From an uncultured virus (IMG/VR IMGVR_UViG_3300046003_003664) (taxonomy: Duplodnaviria > Heunggongvirae > Uroviricota > Caudoviricetes): DNA of 64,000 nucleotides. How positions within the stretch are numbered: position 1 is the stretch's first letter; the number at the start of each line of letters is the position of its first letter. Location: the IMG/VR virus record IMGVR_UViG_3300046003_003664. The stretch is one strand, 5' to 3'. Position numbers and translations under genes: made by a program. The notes below the pieces were generated by a model, which saw nothing but the letters and a program-made list of their open reading frames with translations, had not been told where the DNA came from and did not search any database. Shown here piece by piece: positions 2,943-30,504 of this stretch.

Positions 2943-3018
2943 TGGTGGATCTTATCAGTCTCGAACTGATTACCACGGACTTCCGCCCAGTGCTTTACCC
3001 ATCTTAAGCTAAAGACCC
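2943..3018 (-). ncRNA. Anticodon-less tRNA-Ala-like RNA
   Basis: Acceptor GGGTCTT/AAGATCC-A-CCA (G3:U70), D and T arms intact, anticodon arm capped by a GGAA tetraloop. Confidence 0.7.
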
Positions 3019-3329: not shown

Positions 3330-3404
3330 TGGCTCCTCAGACAGGATTCGAACCTATATTGAACAGATTAACAATCTGGAGCCTTACCTATCGGCCACTG
3401 AGGA
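3330..3404 (-). tRNA. tRNA-Asn(GUU)
   Basis: TCCTCAG/CTGAGGA-G-CCA, loop TTGTTAA. Confidence 0.85.
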
Positions 3405-3903
3405 ACAATTCTTTTATATTTTCTTTATAAACCCATTCACCTTTTGCAATGTTAATTTTATAATGAGTTAGATAATATCTTTCTTCTTCTCTTGCATTTT
3501 CAACAACACGGTAATGTTCAACTTTATATCTTTTCATCGGATCATATGTTTGATAAGATCTTAAACGATTTACGAGATTTTTGGTCATACCAATTTTAAT
3601 AAAACCATCAAAAGCAGGATTACTAATTAAATAAACAATTCCACTTTTTGTTTTTGTCTTTGATTTATTAGTTTTTACTTCTTCTATTTCTTCTCTTTGT
3701 AAATTTAATTTCAACAAAGATAAACCAGCTAATTTTAAAGCATAATTTTTATTAGAATTTGTTTTTGTATCACCATTGCCAGAATATTTTGAATATAAAG
3801 ATACATAGTCTTCTTTCATACTATGGGTAATATCAAATATACCATTCGGTGGCAATGCATCTGTTTCAATCATCTCATAAAAAATAAAACTATCAAACTT
3901 CAC
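3388..3903 (-). CDS. GIY-YIG (T5orf172-like) putative homing endonuclease
   Basis: GIVYLI...FIKIGMT...RLRSYQT...GEW motif; AT-rich insert within the tRNA cluster. Confidence 0.75.
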   Translation of the reverse strand: MKFDSFIFYEMIETDALPPNGIFDITHSMKEDYVSLYSKYSGNGDTKTNSNKNYALKLAGLSLLKLNLQREEIEEVKTNKSKTKTKSGIVYLISNPAFDGFIKIGMTKNLVNRLRSYQTYDPMKRYKVEHYRVVENAREEERYYLTHYKINIAKGEWVYKENIKELFLSGR

Positions 3904-3920
3904 AATATACTTTCTATATT

Positions 3921-3995
3921 TGGCAGGGGCCGCGAGAGTCGAACTCGCTTCTCAAGGTTTTGGAGGCCCGCGGATTACCGGTTTCCCTGACCCCT
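3921..3995 (-). tRNA. tRNA-Trp(CCA)
   Basis: AGGGGTC acceptor, loop CTCCAAA; imperfect anticodon stem. Confidence 0.8.
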
Positions 3996-4213: not shown

Positions 4214-4734
4214 GTATTCAATCTGGTCTTATCGGTTTGTCCGAGCCAGATAATCTCTGTTTTGTTTTTGTAAATCACGGTTTACAGTTTCATCAACTAA
4301 CGTGATCAGATTTCTAAATTGTCAAAGAGCAAGATTAACATTCATCAACAAGACACTCATCACCCAGATTAGCATAGTCAAAGTCTGGGATATATTCCAC
4401 TTCGATCCAACCTTTTTGGCGAAGCGAGAGCGCCTCATACCAATAGCAAGTAACTTTTTCCTTAGTAATTACATTTTGCATTACGTAGGTTTCCATATTA
4501 TTTCCTTTGGTTGGTTATAAGTTTAGTATAAACTGATTCTTACAGATTGTCAACCAATTTTCCGCGGATATTTTCAAGACCTTTATCTTTGATAACGGTC
4601 AACAGTTCCATGCAAGCATTGGATTTTTCAATCTCACCTGCAAGGAGAAAATCAGCAGCATTACGAGCAAGACGTTCAATCAGTTTGGTCATTGTCATGT
4701 TTCGGTTTCCTTTGTGTTACCTTATATATTTAAA

Positions 4735-5323: not shown

Positions 5324-5953
5324 TTATTTTTGTATTAGATAGTGTGTGTCATATGTAAATGCTACAACTTCATTATTTTTGGTATCTAGAATTGAAAACC
5401 CCAAATCCTTGAAGTATTTAAATAATTTGTCACGTTTAACTTGGTCACTTTTTATGTCAGATACTTGATGTGTTTCTAAGACAATTGTAGGATAATCTCT
5501 AGTAAGAATTTCTTGTCCATGGTAAAATATTTCATATTCACCACCTTCAATATCACATTTAATAAAATCAACTTTGATATCTTTACAAAATGTATCAAGT
5601 GTTATTGATTGTACTTGTATAGTATTGTTTACTGAATGTCCCCATTTCTTGAGTTTTGCCAAACCTTCCATAATAGTGTGACCACCATCATTTGCAGAAC
5701 AAACAAAAAGATCAATAACACCATCTGATGTTCCAATTACTTTTTGTTCTATTTGAACATTTTGTTCAGTAACTTTAGCTTTAATCTTTGTTACATTGTC
5801 TGGGTGTGGTTCAAATGAATAAACTTTCCCAAATTTTGATGCAAGTAATTTTGAGTAAATTCCATGATTTGCTCCTATATCTAGTGCAATTCCATTTTCA
5901 TTTACTTCTAAATTTGCTATTACGGTTGCAACCCAATCTTCATTTCTAGACAT
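5324..5953 (-). CDS. FkbM family methyltransferase
   Basis: LDIGANHG, FEP, IKCDIEGGE motifs. Confidence 0.85.
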   Translation of the reverse strand: MSRNEDWVATVIANLEVNENGIALDIGANHGIYSKLLASKFGKVYSFEPHPDNVTKIKAKVTEQNVQIEQKVIGTSDGVIDLFVCSANDGGHTIMEGLAKLKKWGHSVNNTIQVQSITLDTFCKDIKVDFIKCDIEGGEYEIFYHGQEILTRDYPTIVLETHQVSDIKSDQVKRDKLFKYFKDLGFSILDTKNNEVVAFTYDTHYLIQK

Positions 5954-6260: not shown

Positions 6261-6437
6261 AGACCTCATAATTGAAGAAATATTGTTGGTTAGCTACTCC
6301 AAACTAGGGAACTGTTTCGAACCAGTGATCCCAGCTTTTCATGGTAAGGATTCGAACCTTGTCTCCCGCTTCACGCGGGCGTGCTATCCGGGTTGCACCA
6401 TTCCACTACTTTACCTATTTCCTCAATGATGAGGTCT
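6261..6437 (-). ncRNA. Structured ncRNA family 2, copy 2
   Basis: AGACCTCAT/ATGAGGTCT outer stem; D-arm, short stem and T-arm GGTTCGAATCC; similar to 559-710. Confidence 0.6.
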
Positions 6438-6797: not shown

Positions 6798-7104
6798 ATT
6801 TAATCTGTTTTAGTTCTAAATTGTCAAAGAGCGGTTTGTCATTCAGGGTTTACAGTTTCATCAACTAACCTGATTTATAAGTTTATATTATACTGATTCT
6901 GTGGTTTTGTCAACCGTTTTATGCAAAACCACCAGATTTCAAGCGAGAATAAACAGTCCCATCTTCAACACGAATGAAGAAACCATCATCTTCAATGATC
7001 TTCTGACCTTTGTAGAAGCTGCCGACGAGATTTTGTTTCATTTGGTTTCCTTTACCTTATATAATCAATATATACTGATTCTATAGTAATGTCAACCATT
7101 ATTT

Positions 7105-7194
7105 TGGCGGAGTCGGGGGAGCACGATTCCCATGGTATTTCTACCACGTTCTGCTTTCCAAGCAGACCTGCCAACCTTGACAGCTCTCAACTCC
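7105..7194 (-). tRNA. tRNA-Ser(GGA)
   Basis: Long variable arm, loop TTGGAAA, G73. Confidence 0.85.
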
Positions 7195-7282: not shown

Positions 7283-7385
7283 TTCTGTTTTCAGCTGCTC
7301 TTTTTGGATTCGAACCAGTCCAACCAACTAAATGGGCGAGGTTAACCGTACTACATTACGGACTAAAGAGCATGTGAAAACAGAA
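7283..7385 (-). ncRNA. Structured ncRNA family 3, copy 2
   Basis: TCTGTTTTCACATG...GTCCGT...GGTTCGAATCC...AGCTGAAAACAGA. Confidence 0.55.
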
Positions 7386-7635: not shown

Positions 7636-7734
7636 TCAAAACAGCCCACTTCCTCTGCCTATGAGCACTTGGCGACCAGGATTATTATCCTGTGTCCATT
7701 GCGCTGATAATGAGGAGACGTGTAGGGAAGTCAT
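7636..7734 (-). CDS. Putative attenuator leader peptide 1 (MTSLHVSSLSAQWTQDNNPGRQVLIGRGSGLF)
   Basis: 32-codon ORF after a TATAAATA late promoter; last codons complementary to the terminator 5' arm; codons match cluster-1 tRNAs. Confidence 0.7.
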   Translation of the reverse strand: MTSLHVSSLSAQWTQDNNPGRQVLIGRGSGLF

Positions 7735-9705: not shown

Positions 9706-9915
9706 TCAGAGAGTTTCGAGACGGAAGTACCAAGTTTTCAGATTCTGTGAAAACCCGGAATCTGCTCGTTCACCGCAATGTCGATATGCTTTTGCAAGAC
9801 GAAGACAAGCAAGTTCAGAACCAAATGCATATAGTGCACCACCTAGTGATTGAACATCGAGAGTTTCTTTAGTGTGATTCTCAAATTCAGTCTTTGCACG
9901 GTTTATGTTTATCAT
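9706..9915 (-). CDS. hypothetical protein
   Basis: GAGG RBS. Confidence 0.55.
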   Translation of the reverse strand: MININRAKTEFENHTKETLDVQSLGGALYAFGSELACLRLAKAYRHCGERADSGFSQNLKTWYFRLETL

Positions 9916-10260
9916 GCAGTTTCCTCTTCTTCTGCGTCAGTATTATCACCGTCAGGGAAATGAATTGCATACCAGTCATGCTCATCGTAGACATCATACT
10001 CGTAATCTTCGTTCATCTGGTTTCCTCTACCTTATAGAATCAGTATAAACTATTTAAAAGCATTTGTCAACAATATTTTTGTACCATTTACTCTCTTGAG
10101 GGTCTATTCCACTGGATAGTTCATGAATATATTGATGAACTGCTACATTCATATGTTTCTCAATAAGGTTTTCTATATTCAATACATGAGTTGTAAGTCT
10201 CATACTTGGGAGCAGTGGAAGTTTTTTGTAGGTAAATGGGTCTCTATAACCTAATTCCAT

Positions 10261-28200: not shown

Positions 28201-28274
28201 TGGTGTTCCTACGAGGTAACGATCCTCGGTCTCTCGCTTATCAGGCGAATGCTCTACCATTGAGCTATAGGAAC
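28201..28274 (-). tRNA. tRNA-Ile(GAU)
   Basis: Loop CTGATAA. Confidence 0.9.
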
Positions 28275-28294
28275 CTAAATTGTCAAAGAGCAAT

Positions 28295-28328
28295 AAAAAA
28301 CCCTCCGAGGATTTTTCCAGGAGGGTTC
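28295..28328 (-). terminator. Intrinsic terminator / attenuator of tRNA cluster 2
   Basis: GAACCCTCC...GGAGGGTT-TTTT directly upstream of boxA and tRNA-Ile. Confidence 0.85.
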
Positions 28329-28357
28329 TAAAACTATATACTTATTTGCATAAGATA

Positions 28358-28417
28358 TCAGTCTCGGGAACCCTCCCAAGTCATATATTCCTCAAATTTG
28401 CAAATAAAGTAAGTCAT
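28358..28417 (-). CDS. Putative attenuator leader peptide 2 (MTYFICKFEEYMTWEGSRD)
   Basis: GAGG RBS; codons 3-12 use only cluster-2 amino acids; GGAGGGTTC complementary to the terminator 5' arm. Confidence 0.75.
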   Translation of the reverse strand: MTYFICKFEEYMTWEGSRD

Positions 28418-28443
28418 TTTAGTCCTCTGTTTTGTTTTAATCT

Positions 28444-28493
28444 GGATGAGCTTGGTTTTGTATATCAAACAATTTTAGTTGCTGTATTCATCC
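28444..28493 (-). ncRNA. CAGCAA bulged-stem element (no tRNA module)
   Basis: GGATGA-ATACAGCAA...TCATCC, covarying with GGATCA/TGATCC of the permuted RNAs. Confidence 0.55.
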
Positions 28494-28504
28494 ATTATTT
28501 GGTT

Positions 28505-28542
28505 TATTTATATAATATATACTGATTCTGTGTGTTTGTCAA
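28505..28542 (-). promoter_or_regulatory. Overlapping sigma70 (class A) and TATAAATA promoters for tRNA cluster 2
   Basis: TTGACA-17-TATATT with GAATCAG; TATAAATA at 28505-28512. Confidence 0.7.
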
Positions 28543-29747: not shown

Positions 29748-30056
29748 TCATATGCCAAAACTTTCACCACAGCCACATTTTGCTTTTGCGTTAGGATTCA
29801 ATACTGTCAGATAGTTGCCACTTAGTTTACGAATGTAATCCACAGTACAACCAAATACAAACATCTCAGCCATAGTATCCAAGACAAGAATGTCTTGCAC
29901 TAATGTACCTTTGTCGGTCTCATCAGTAAAGTTCCATTCATATTTGAACCCACTGCATCCACCACCTTTGACGTTAAGATAAACATATCGTGTGCCGTTA
30001 TCCTCAGTCATCTTAGTAAGATATTCTTTTGCTGTCGATGTAATATTTAAAAGCAT
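29748..30056 (-). CDS. HesB/IscA-like Fe-S cluster assembly protein
   Basis: GGGCSGFKY, NPNA...CGCGESF. Confidence 0.9.
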   Translation of the reverse strand: MLLNITSTAKEYLTKMTEDNGTRYVYLNVKGGGCSGFKYEWNFTDETDKGTLVQDILVLDTMAEMFVFGCTVDYIRKLSGNYLTVLNPNAKAKCGCGESFGI

Positions 30057-30063
30057 TTGTTTT

Positions 30064-30504
30064 TTACTCGCACCATGATTTTTTGGCATCACCATAATAT
30101 TCTCTGGCATAACCATTCTCGATAAGAAGTTTTGTAAGACTTTTACCATCTATGAGAATATCACCAAGAACACGGCCGCCGAACTTGTCCCACTCGTAAA
30201 TTACAATTTCTGTTTTCTTTGCTTCAGCAAGAAGTTTCTTTGTAAATTTACTTGCATCTTCTCCAAGTTTTTTCTCAGAATCACAATTTGCGCGGAATGA
30301 TTTTTCAGGTGTATCTACACCCCAGACGCGTAATGATAACTTTTTGTCGAGTGGTGCTGGAAGAAAGTCTGCTTTAAATTCCACAGTATCACCATCTATC
30401 ACACGAATAATTTCATATGGATATGGCACACCTTTAGGTATTTTTGGTCCTGCTAACCCAATTGAAGGGATTAACAGGACCAATAGAAATATGAATAGTC
30501 TCAT
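30064..30504 (-). CDS. thermonuclease (SNase) family protein with signal peptide
   Basis: RVIDGDT, GVDTPE, DKFGGRVLG, L.ENGYA. Confidence 0.88.
   Translation of the reverse strand: MRLFIFLLVLLIPSIGLAGPKIPKGVPYPYEIIRVIDGDTVEFKADFLPAPLDKKLSLRVWGVDTPEKSFRANCDSEKKLGEDASKFTKKLLAEAKKTEIVIYEWDKFGGRVLGDILIDGKSLTKLLIENGYAREYYGDAKKSWCE

Follow-up and report, generated by a model that had tools for sequence, protein, structure and literature searches.

In the DNA of an uncultured virus of the Caudoviricetes (IMG/VR record IMGVR_UViG_3300046003_003664), we analyzed a stretch of 64,000 nucleotides (nt), called the window below, and within it a short minus-strand leader unit that precedes an array of eight transfer RNA (tRNA) genes, cluster 2. 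With a probability of roughly three in four, we read this unit as a ribosome-mediated (leader-peptide) transcription attenuator that stands before a phage tRNA array and senses decoding supply; this lake phage probably makes the tRNAs of the array when ribosomes read their codons slowly. The reading is carried by the anatomy of the unit, its conservation, the co-variation of leader with array and of codon with anticodon, and the alternative pairings of the leader RNA, all of which we observe in the sequences themselves.

On the minus strand, from 28542 to 27183, the order is a promoter, a GAGG motif, a 19-codon open reading frame (ORF), a 30-nt spacer, an intrinsic terminator, a boxA-like 17-mer and eight tRNA genes (Table 1). 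The same order of elements had been proposed in a first-pass annotation of this DNA, and we found each of them where it had been placed. The leader ORF occurs in the ORF list of the window only inside a longer TTG-started frame, and a simple terminator scan passed over the cluster-2 terminator because its loop exceeds 8 nt. A hairpin-plus-T-run scan assigns its core -13.3 kcal/mol, and the 48-nt stretch that contains it folds at -18.8 kcal/mol. No promoter had been seen between the terminator and tRNA-Ile; our promoter scan likewise finds no promoter-like site in these 27 nt, nor on the minus strand within the cluster-2 array, and its one weak hit nearby (9/12; 28361-28333) lies upstream of the terminator.

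One link between leader and array is the choice of amino acids. Leader codons 3-12 (YFICKFEEYM) use exactly the seven amino acids of the cluster-2 array, as had been noticed at first pass. Read in six frames, the window yields 76,529 stop-free 10-mers. Twelve of them are composed solely of these amino acids, and a single one, the leader itself, covers all seven. In simulations with amino-acid frequencies taken from the long ORFs of the window, such a run occurred in 18 of 2,000,000 18-mers. The match extends to codons: under strict wobble rules all nine non-Met codons among 3-12 are readable by array anticodons, and the ATG at codon 12 matches the tRNA-Met of the array.

The window holds a second unit of this kind. 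A large tRNA cluster (cluster 1) runs from 7277 down to the window start behind a leader and terminator at 7734-7574; in a near-identical contig behind L097 (3 of 7800 positions differ) it continues past the window start with tRNAs for Gln, His, Leu and Thr, a tRNA with a CTA anticodon, and further tRNAs for Thr, Val and Arg. The cluster-1 leader has 32 codons and draws on the 13 amino acids of its cluster. With default tRNA calls, 28 of its 31 residues fall in the cluster-1 set and 2 of 31 in the cluster-2 set; Trp becomes a 29th match if the tRNA at 3995-3921 (minus strand) is accepted, which scores 36.2 bits against Rfam, above the gathering score, and is called Trp(CCA) by ARAGORN at a relaxed threshold. 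The cluster-2 leader has 11 of 18 residues in its own set, with the matches at codons 3-12, and 7 of 18 in the cluster-1 set. The cluster-1 leader also samples isoacceptors: its codons CTA, TTA and CTC correspond to three Leu tRNAs, and two tRNAs each are covered for Gln (CAA, CAG), Thr (ACA, ACT), Val (GTC, GTG) and Gly (GGT/GGC, GGA/GGG). Jointly, the two leaders contain all 20 amino acids, as does the leader pair in each of the five phages in which two leaders were found (5/5); the simulated chance of such coverage is 3-7% per phage, and two of the five share a homologous leader.

Several further observations concern cluster 1. ARAGORN at default settings missed tRNA-like genes on the minus strand at 3921-3995, 2943-3018, 7105-7194, 7294-7372 and 6338-6408. 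A Trp(CCA) and a Phe(GAA)-like gene among them have Rfam support (36.2 and 34.7 bits), and a Ser(GGA), an Ala(CGC) and another Ser-like gene appear at relaxed thresholds only; if real, these genes fill gaps in the match of the cluster-1 leader (TCC, GCG, TGG, TTT). Behind the cluster-1 terminator lies a promoter-like TTGACA-17-TATAAC at 7566-7538, which the promoter scan did not call, together with a boxA variant. Within the leader, AAUCCUGG in codons 18-20 is nearly complementary to CCAGGAAU in the cluster-1 terminator. A W-x-x-G-x-x-N-P-G-like motif recurs in the window's leader at 7636-7734 and in leaders L073, L077, L081, L085, L086 and L087 (Asn/Ser/Gly/Thr/Leu/Pro type); homology, a nascent-peptide effect or RNA pairing could be its source. 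The tRNA with the CTA anticodon, labelled Pyl by ARAGORN, is found at 13913 in L097 (the same phage) and in the arrays of L071, L076, L077, L082, L111 and L113; this anticodon would read the amber stop codon.

The phage is T4-like, with a DNA polymerase at most 43% identical to cyanomyovirus gp43, and its DNA is present in 22 runs labelled lake-water metagenome. Among cultured phage records, a near search with the array and leader gave one DNA match, to a tRNA-Glu, and a distant search gave none; no cultured phage in these records is a close relative. Only two metatranscriptome runs contain small shares of the phage, as contigs; a 283-nt RNA-library contig of a relative (28358-28431, 9 differences) was given no weight as evidence of expression, as it offers neither ends nor strand and is possibly DNA.

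To follow the leader/array relationship beyond this phage, we scanned viral contigs with the boxA-like 17-mer and obtained 66 loci, many of them tRNA-rich. A unit was called where a terminator of -10 kcal/mol or better lies at most 800 nt upstream of a tRNA. The leader was taken as the longest ATG-started ORF with a Shine-Dalgarno (SD) sequence that ends 10-60 nt before the hairpin or, failing that, as the longest ATG/GTG ORF; among 27 related units, 22 leaders were chosen by the SD+ATG rule and 5 by the fallback without SD. Arrays comprise tRNAs on one strand that are separated by no more than 1000 nt and extend as far as the next unit. Removal of identical leaders left 21 units with at least four tRNAs, one probable normal-gene end being retained among them.

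In these 21 units, leader composition follows array composition. Leaders hold 96.7% of the amino-acid types of their own array, compared to 71.8 ± 4.3% for permuted pairs, and 68.4% of leader-core residues belong to the set of their own array, compared to 48.9 ± 3.5%; none of 10,000 permutations reached either observed value. The result is stable for gap rules of 500, 2000 and unlimited length, and when the last six codons are included. Pooled over units, an amino acid is present in the leader in 178 of 182 cases when the array has its tRNA and in 100 of 217 when it does not. As examples, leader MIRQPQPQMNNKRQVFTCEYIRMCEGSI precedes an array of Cys, Met, Gln, Pro, Lys, Lys, Asn, Phe, Ile, Glu, Val, Thr and Arg, and leader MTTMMKHIQQYCIRWFSEGRSVLLT precedes Trp, Ile, Tyr, Lys, Gln, Cys, Met and Phe. 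Because two recurring array types could reflect one ancestral split, we also permuted within types. In the 10 units of type B, whose arrays have Lys or Ile but lack Asp, no within-type permutation out of 10,000 reached the observed values; in the 7 units of type A, whose arrays have Asp but lack Lys and Ile, 30 and 25 of the 10,000 did. Codon/tRNA correspondence in homologous loci, the absence of which had been named beforehand as one observation that would refute the idea, was looked for and is present.

The correspondence also holds below the level of amino acids. For 20 units (the probable false unit was dropped), we resampled synonymous codons from local codon usage. Own-array anticodons can read 235 of 284 leader codons, compared to 207.2 ± 5.8 after resampling, and leaders sample 168 of 186 array anticodons, compared to 147.9 ± 4.3; 0 of 2000 resamplings reached either value. 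The fraction of matched residues declines toward the stop codon (0.72, 0.63, 0.52, 0.45), as expected if the last codons are constrained by pairing and not by sensing. Chance or composition as the source of the match is ruled out by the 10-mer count, the simulations, the permutations and the comparison of the two leaders: the match between leader and array is real and far beyond chance. As a separate observation, the leader ATG in L094 (~9890-9991) and L100/L101 (~9850-9977) follows the -10 hexamer at a distance of about 6-7 nt and lacks an SD, so that these leaders may be translated from leaderless transcripts.

Another line of evidence is the ability of the leader RNA to fold in alternative ways. 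The first-pass annotation had reported that the ORF end at 28376-28368 is complementary to the terminator 5' arm; folding bears this out and extends it to a 12-bp antiterminator helix. The complete 143-nt leader folds at -45.3 kcal/mol (z -5.19; 0 of 200 shuffles as good); in this structure codons 2-7 pair with the spacer, GGGAGGGUUCCC is folded into a small local hairpin, and the terminator is formed. A 70-nt stretch from codon 11 to the terminator 5' arm folds instead at -28.1 kcal/mol (z -5.46) into the 12-bp antiterminator helix UUGGGAGGGUUC/GAACCCUCCUGG, which closes a spacer hairpin. The duplex between the cluster-2 ORF end and its own terminator arm has -23.3 kcal/mol, compared to -10.5 ± 2.9 kcal/mol for shuffles. 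Such pairing extends beyond cluster 2: over the 27 units, the last 36 nt of the ORF pair with their own terminator 5' arm at a mean of -17.7 kcal/mol and with the arms of other units at -12.3 ± 0.58 kcal/mol, a difference reached by 0 of 10,000 permutations, and the distance from stop codon to hairpin has a median of 29 nt.

We then modelled the effect of a ribosome with a partition function in which the bases from 15 before to 12 after the A-site codon are held unpaired. For cluster 2, the model forms the terminator with a probability of 0.99 when no ribosome is present. This value drops to about 0.2 or less for an A site at any of codons 2-11 and returns to about 1 for positions between codon 12 and the stop; a run that retains the U tract agrees with this, though with more noise. 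The effective stall window is therefore predicted to span about codons 2-10/11, and naked RNA is predicted to terminate through the helix of codons 2-7 with the spacer, a trp-like default. The attenuator proposed at first pass stands in silico as regards its three modelled states in this unit, its pairing and its co-variation; it does not stand for stalls at codons 11-12, which favour the terminator in the model.

Close homologues of the cluster-2 leader, found by scanning for the 16-mer at the ORF end, occur in two other phages (L135/L139 and L136). L135/L139 has an identical ORF with a different promoter region, spacer and terminator loop, and its array carries tRNAs for all seven cluster-2 amino acids, ordered differently (Cys, Lys, Ile, Glu, Tyr, Phe, Met), the Cys and Tyr tRNAs of L139 being called at the relaxed ARAGORN threshold only. 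L136 has the leader MTYFICKFKEYMTWEGSRG and an array of Cys, Ile, Tyr, Phe, Cys, Lys, Glu, Lys, Phe, Met, Tyr, Glu and Ile; its Glu-to-Lys change in the leader remains inside the array set. In the three-phage alignment, the invariant columns number 57 of 60 for the ORF, compared to 30 of 100 (5' flank), 15 of 30 (spacer) and 19 of 34 (terminator). The SD is kept (AGAGGA/AGAGAG) in L136 and L135, as is TATGCAAATA in the spacer segment of all three phages. The terminator stem of L136 carries a compensatory C>T/G>A change, after which the altered base can still pair, as G-U, with the invariant ORF strand, so that neither of the two alternative helices is lost.

We propose the following mechanism. 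Transcripts from the promoter at 28542 would carry the 19-codon ORF, in which codons 3-12 call for exactly those tRNA species that the downstream array encodes. If decoding is quick, a ribosome at the last codons or the stop would cover UUGGGAGGGUUC, the terminator hairpin would form, and transcripts would end at 28300-28292, ahead of boxA and tRNA-Ile. A ribosome that waits at codons 2-10/11 because a tRNA is missing, uncharged or cleaved would open the helix between the 5' half of the leader and the spacer; the freed UUGGGAGGGUUC would pair with GAACCCUCCUGG, the terminator would not form, and RNA polymerase would enter boxA and the eight tRNA genes. Untranslated RNA would terminate. Synthesis of the tRNA set would in this way be coupled to the capacity of the cell to decode the codons of that set, as a supply-and-demand feedback closed by the newly made phage tRNAs. 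The trigger could be a shortage of host tRNAs, their cleavage by a defence nuclease, or feedback from the tRNAs that the phage itself makes. The first-pass suggestion that these tRNAs might be made only upon depletion of host tRNAs, for example by anticodon nucleases, stays an inference. A broader and more tentative scheme, which we hold to be possible though rather doubtful, has the whole tRNA repertoire of the phage divided into two regulons, each gated by a leader that spells its amino acids, acting as a decoding-damage sensor and counter-defence switch. Cleavage or depletion of host tRNAs by anticodon nucleases or phage-induced shut-off would stall the leader that has the affected codons, and only the matching replacement tRNA set would be transcribed until decoding recovers.

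A number of points weigh against the attenuator. We infer translation of the ORF, the switching itself and its physiological trigger. The units are related to one another, so the permutation counts overstate their independence, and where an array begins and ends depends on the gap rule and on tRNA calling by ARAGORN, which overlooks some genes. Leader-core precision is 0.68, so for roughly one residue in three no matching tRNA was detected in the array, and the cluster-2 leader has Thr at codons 2 and 13 with no tRNA-Thr in its array. Each amino acid occurs once or twice in this leader, in contrast to the runs of his or phe leaders, and losing one tRNA may therefore bring about only a shallow response. 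In the mask model, a ribosome stalled at codons 11-12 covers the antiterminator strand. The equilibrium version of this model switches in only 14 of 27 units, and not in the cluster-1 unit of the window; as a general test, equilibrium switching was rejected, since it fails in 13 of 27 units, and was kept as support for the cluster-2 unit only. The non-switching units may rely on kinetics, or the model or the unit calls may be wrong. Finally, promoter-like sequences and another three boxA copies lie behind the terminator of cluster 1, so attenuation cannot be the sole control there; the promoter scan shows no such bypass in cluster 2.

Some of these points would also suit a general translation-status sensor, in which the unit registers whether a ribosome follows the polymerase (host shut-off, ribosome shortage, inhibitors) and the match has no tRNA-specific role. 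The sparse use of each amino acid and the unmatched third of core residues fit such a sensor, and the switch geometry would respond to any slowing of the ribosome. It leaves unexplained, however, why two leaders divide the amino acids along array lines, why the match tracks array differences within one array type, and why synonymous codon choice fits the array anticodons, and we consider it unlikely. Still less likely is an ordinary small gene with a constitutive terminator, whose peptide would have a separate function or none at all, the array being transcribed by leakage or from unrecognised promoters. The promoter-like sequences behind the cluster-1 terminator and the 13 of 27 units without an equilibrium switch point in that direction; on the other hand, very diverse peptides still match their arrays, ORF 3' ends pair with their own terminators, the spacing from stop to hairpin is narrow, and the stretch between the cluster-2 terminator and tRNA-Ile has no promoter-like site.

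A timing device ranks marginally lower again and seems to us very improbable. Here tRNA transcription would be low early and be opened by phage changes to translation or transcription (RNA polymerase, Nus factors), with codons mattering little. The sigma-70-type early promoters and the rrn-like boxA do suggest the use of host transcription factors, but boxA lies downstream of the terminator and cannot modify polymerase before the decision point, and the codon/anticodon match would go unexplained. Action in trans of the terminated leader transcript as a small RNA, or of the peptide as a small protein, with the cis arrangement secondary, is barely credible: the ORF is conserved at the nucleotide level in three phages and trans-acting attenuator products are known elsewhere (rnTrpL/peTrpL; PMC6614838, PMC7298713), but nothing points to any target, and leader sequences vary widely between phages while the cis logic is kept.

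Table 1 Features of the two leader units and the cluster-2 tRNA array in the window.
Feature	Position	Strand	Remark
Sigma-70-type promoter TTGACA-17-TATATT	28542-28514	-	-35 at 28542-28537, -10 at 28519-28514; 11/12 consensus matches
Shine-Dalgarno GAGG	28427-28424	-	6 nt 5' of ATG
Leader ORF MTYFICKFEEYMTWEGSRD	28417-28358	-	19 codons + TGA
Regulatory codons 3-12 (YFICKFEEYM)	28411-28382	-	all seven array amino acids, none besides
Region 1, leader codons 2-7	28414-28399 (approximate limits)	-	pairs with spacer in untranslated RNA, per minimum free energy structure
Antiterminator 5' strand UUGGGAGGGUUC	28379-28368	-	within ORF codons 13-17
GGAGGGTTC	28376-28368	-	complementary to GAACCCTCC at 28328-28320
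Spacer segment UGCAAAUAAGUA	28350-28339 (approximate limits)	-	partner of region 1
Intrinsic terminator GAACCCTCC...GGAGGG, then TTTTTTATT	28329-28292	-	hairpin 28329-28297, T tract 28300-28292
Terminator 5' arm GAACCCUCCUGG	28328-28317	-	antiterminator 3' strand
boxA-like GCTCTTTGACAATTTAG	28291-28275	-	immediately 5' of tRNA-Ile
tRNA array, cluster 2	28274-27183	-	Ile, Tyr, Phe, Glu, Lys, Lys, Met, Cys
tRNA-Ile(GAT)	28274-28201	-	
tRNA-Tyr(GTA)	28195-28112	-	
tRNA-Phe(GAA)	28107-28032	-	
tRNA-Glu(TTC)	27924-27848	-	
tRNA-Lys(CTT)	27839-27754	-	
tRNA-Lys(TTT)	27745-27658	-	
tRNA-Met(CAT)	27548-27477	-	
tRNA-Cys(GCA)	27264-27183	-	
Cluster-1 leader ORF MTSLHVSSLSAQWTQDNNPGRQVLIGRGSGLF	7734-7636	-	32 codons
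Cluster-1 terminator	7607-7574	-	13 pairs, then ATTTTGG
Four copies of the 17-mer	744-760, 4314-4330, 6816-6832, 28275-28291	-	each ahead of tRNA genes

The boxA-like 17-mer GCTCTTTGACAATTTAG has four exact copies in the window, where 0.39 are expected, and it precedes tRNA arrays in many viral contigs. Its segment GCTCTTTGACAA we take to be one base off the E. coli rrn boxA. The rrn-type boxA consensus is found upstream of stable-RNA genes, as a putative Nus factor site. As in rrn-type boxA/Nus antitermination, the site lies between a promoter/attenuator and stable-RNA genes; unlike there, the phage site follows a conditional terminator and is used four times within tRNA clusters. Three of the four copies are followed by a hairpin AACAGA...TCTGTTTT(C/G)ACA, and this pair of 17-mer and hairpin, seen again in many related viral contigs, may serve as a signal for antitermination or processing.

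The early-promoter module TTGACAAA(C/A)(A/C)CACAGAATCAGTATA is repeated on the minus strand at 28735-28707, 28542-28514, ~805-775 and ~6915-6890; the copies have near-identical spacers and precede small ORFs and tRNA blocks. One of them belongs to a 39-codon, very basic ORF, MNFYKKIGRKAAGCWGRPGNKYAKRMSAKAIRRLSKNYE, at 28678-28559 (minus strand), just 5' of the leader promoter. This ORF has no Pfam match, and no terminator lies between it and the leader promoter. Among or beside the tRNA clusters, protein genes lie on the minus strand at 5324-5953, 3388-3903, 1857-2093, 29748-30149 and 30064-30504; the proteins there are an FkbM-type methyltransferase, a T5orf172/MUG113-domain protein, a phage tail collar domain protein, an Fe-S cluster biosynthesis (IscA-like) protein and a staphylococcal-nuclease homologue.

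Phage tRNA genes are usually explained by compensation for codon usage, replacement of degraded host tRNAs, or escape from tRNA-cleaving defences. If the attenuator reading is true, the phage itself gauges decoding capacity and makes its tRNAs on demand. Leader-peptide attenuation would then no longer be confined to cells and to amino-acid biosynthesis genes but would include viruses and tRNA genes, and its range of one or a few amino acids would widen to seven, thirteen or all twenty. The rule that leader composition equals array composition could also be used to annotate tRNA transcription units in uncultured phages. Full-text literature searches, with subscription journals and supplements outside their scope, yielded no account of attenuators before tRNA genes. 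Phage T5 was tried as a model and set aside: positions 20000-50000 of its record gave one weak terminator candidate, in translated-looking sequence, and the terminator screen, in which the leader-ORF step was not run, found no hairpin of the cluster-2 kind directly ahead of a tRNA block in that range.

Leader-peptide attenuators include trpL, hisL, leuL and pheL, and the multivalent thrL and ilvGMEDA leaders. In trp/his-type attenuation, a stalled ribosome frees the antiterminator strand and a ribosome at the stop covers it. In E. coli, the pheST operon for phenylalanyl-tRNA synthetase is controlled by such an attenuator, with the leader pheM. pheST resembles the phage unit in that a component of the decoding apparatus is controlled by the decoding of its own codons; it differs in having one amino acid, a protein gene and a host chromosomal operon. 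T-box riboswitches share terminator read-through in response to tRNA status, but they bind uncharged tRNA directly and have no ORF. A cmscan of window positions 1-30000 (E up to 1) gave no match to T-box or another Rfam leader family, its sole hit on the leader being a sub-threshold mir-2208 (26.4 bits; gathering score 70). Cysteine-responsive attenuators with leaderless short ORFs are described in mycobacteria (bioRxiv 10.1101/834739). In outline, these ORFs too sense particular codons, and L094 and L100/L101 likewise appear to start at or near the transcript 5' end; the mycobacterial systems differ in their single amino acid and protein operons.

The closest relatives in design are the attenuators of amino-acid operons, the general principle of which is given in PMC1183508. 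Like them, the phage unit combines a short ORF that carries regulatory codons with an intrinsic terminator and with an antiterminator, mutually exclusive with the terminator, whose strand lies at the 3' end of the ORF. As for the trp attenuator, there are three states in our model: no translation terminates, a stall reads through and completion terminates. The thr and ilv leaders come nearest in using several amino acids. The phage unit differs from the amino-acid operon attenuators in that it controls tRNA genes instead of biosynthetic enzymes, and in that the element is phage-borne and followed by an rrn-type boxA. Its codons, one or two for each of seven (or thirteen) amino acids, mirror the array down to the anticodon.

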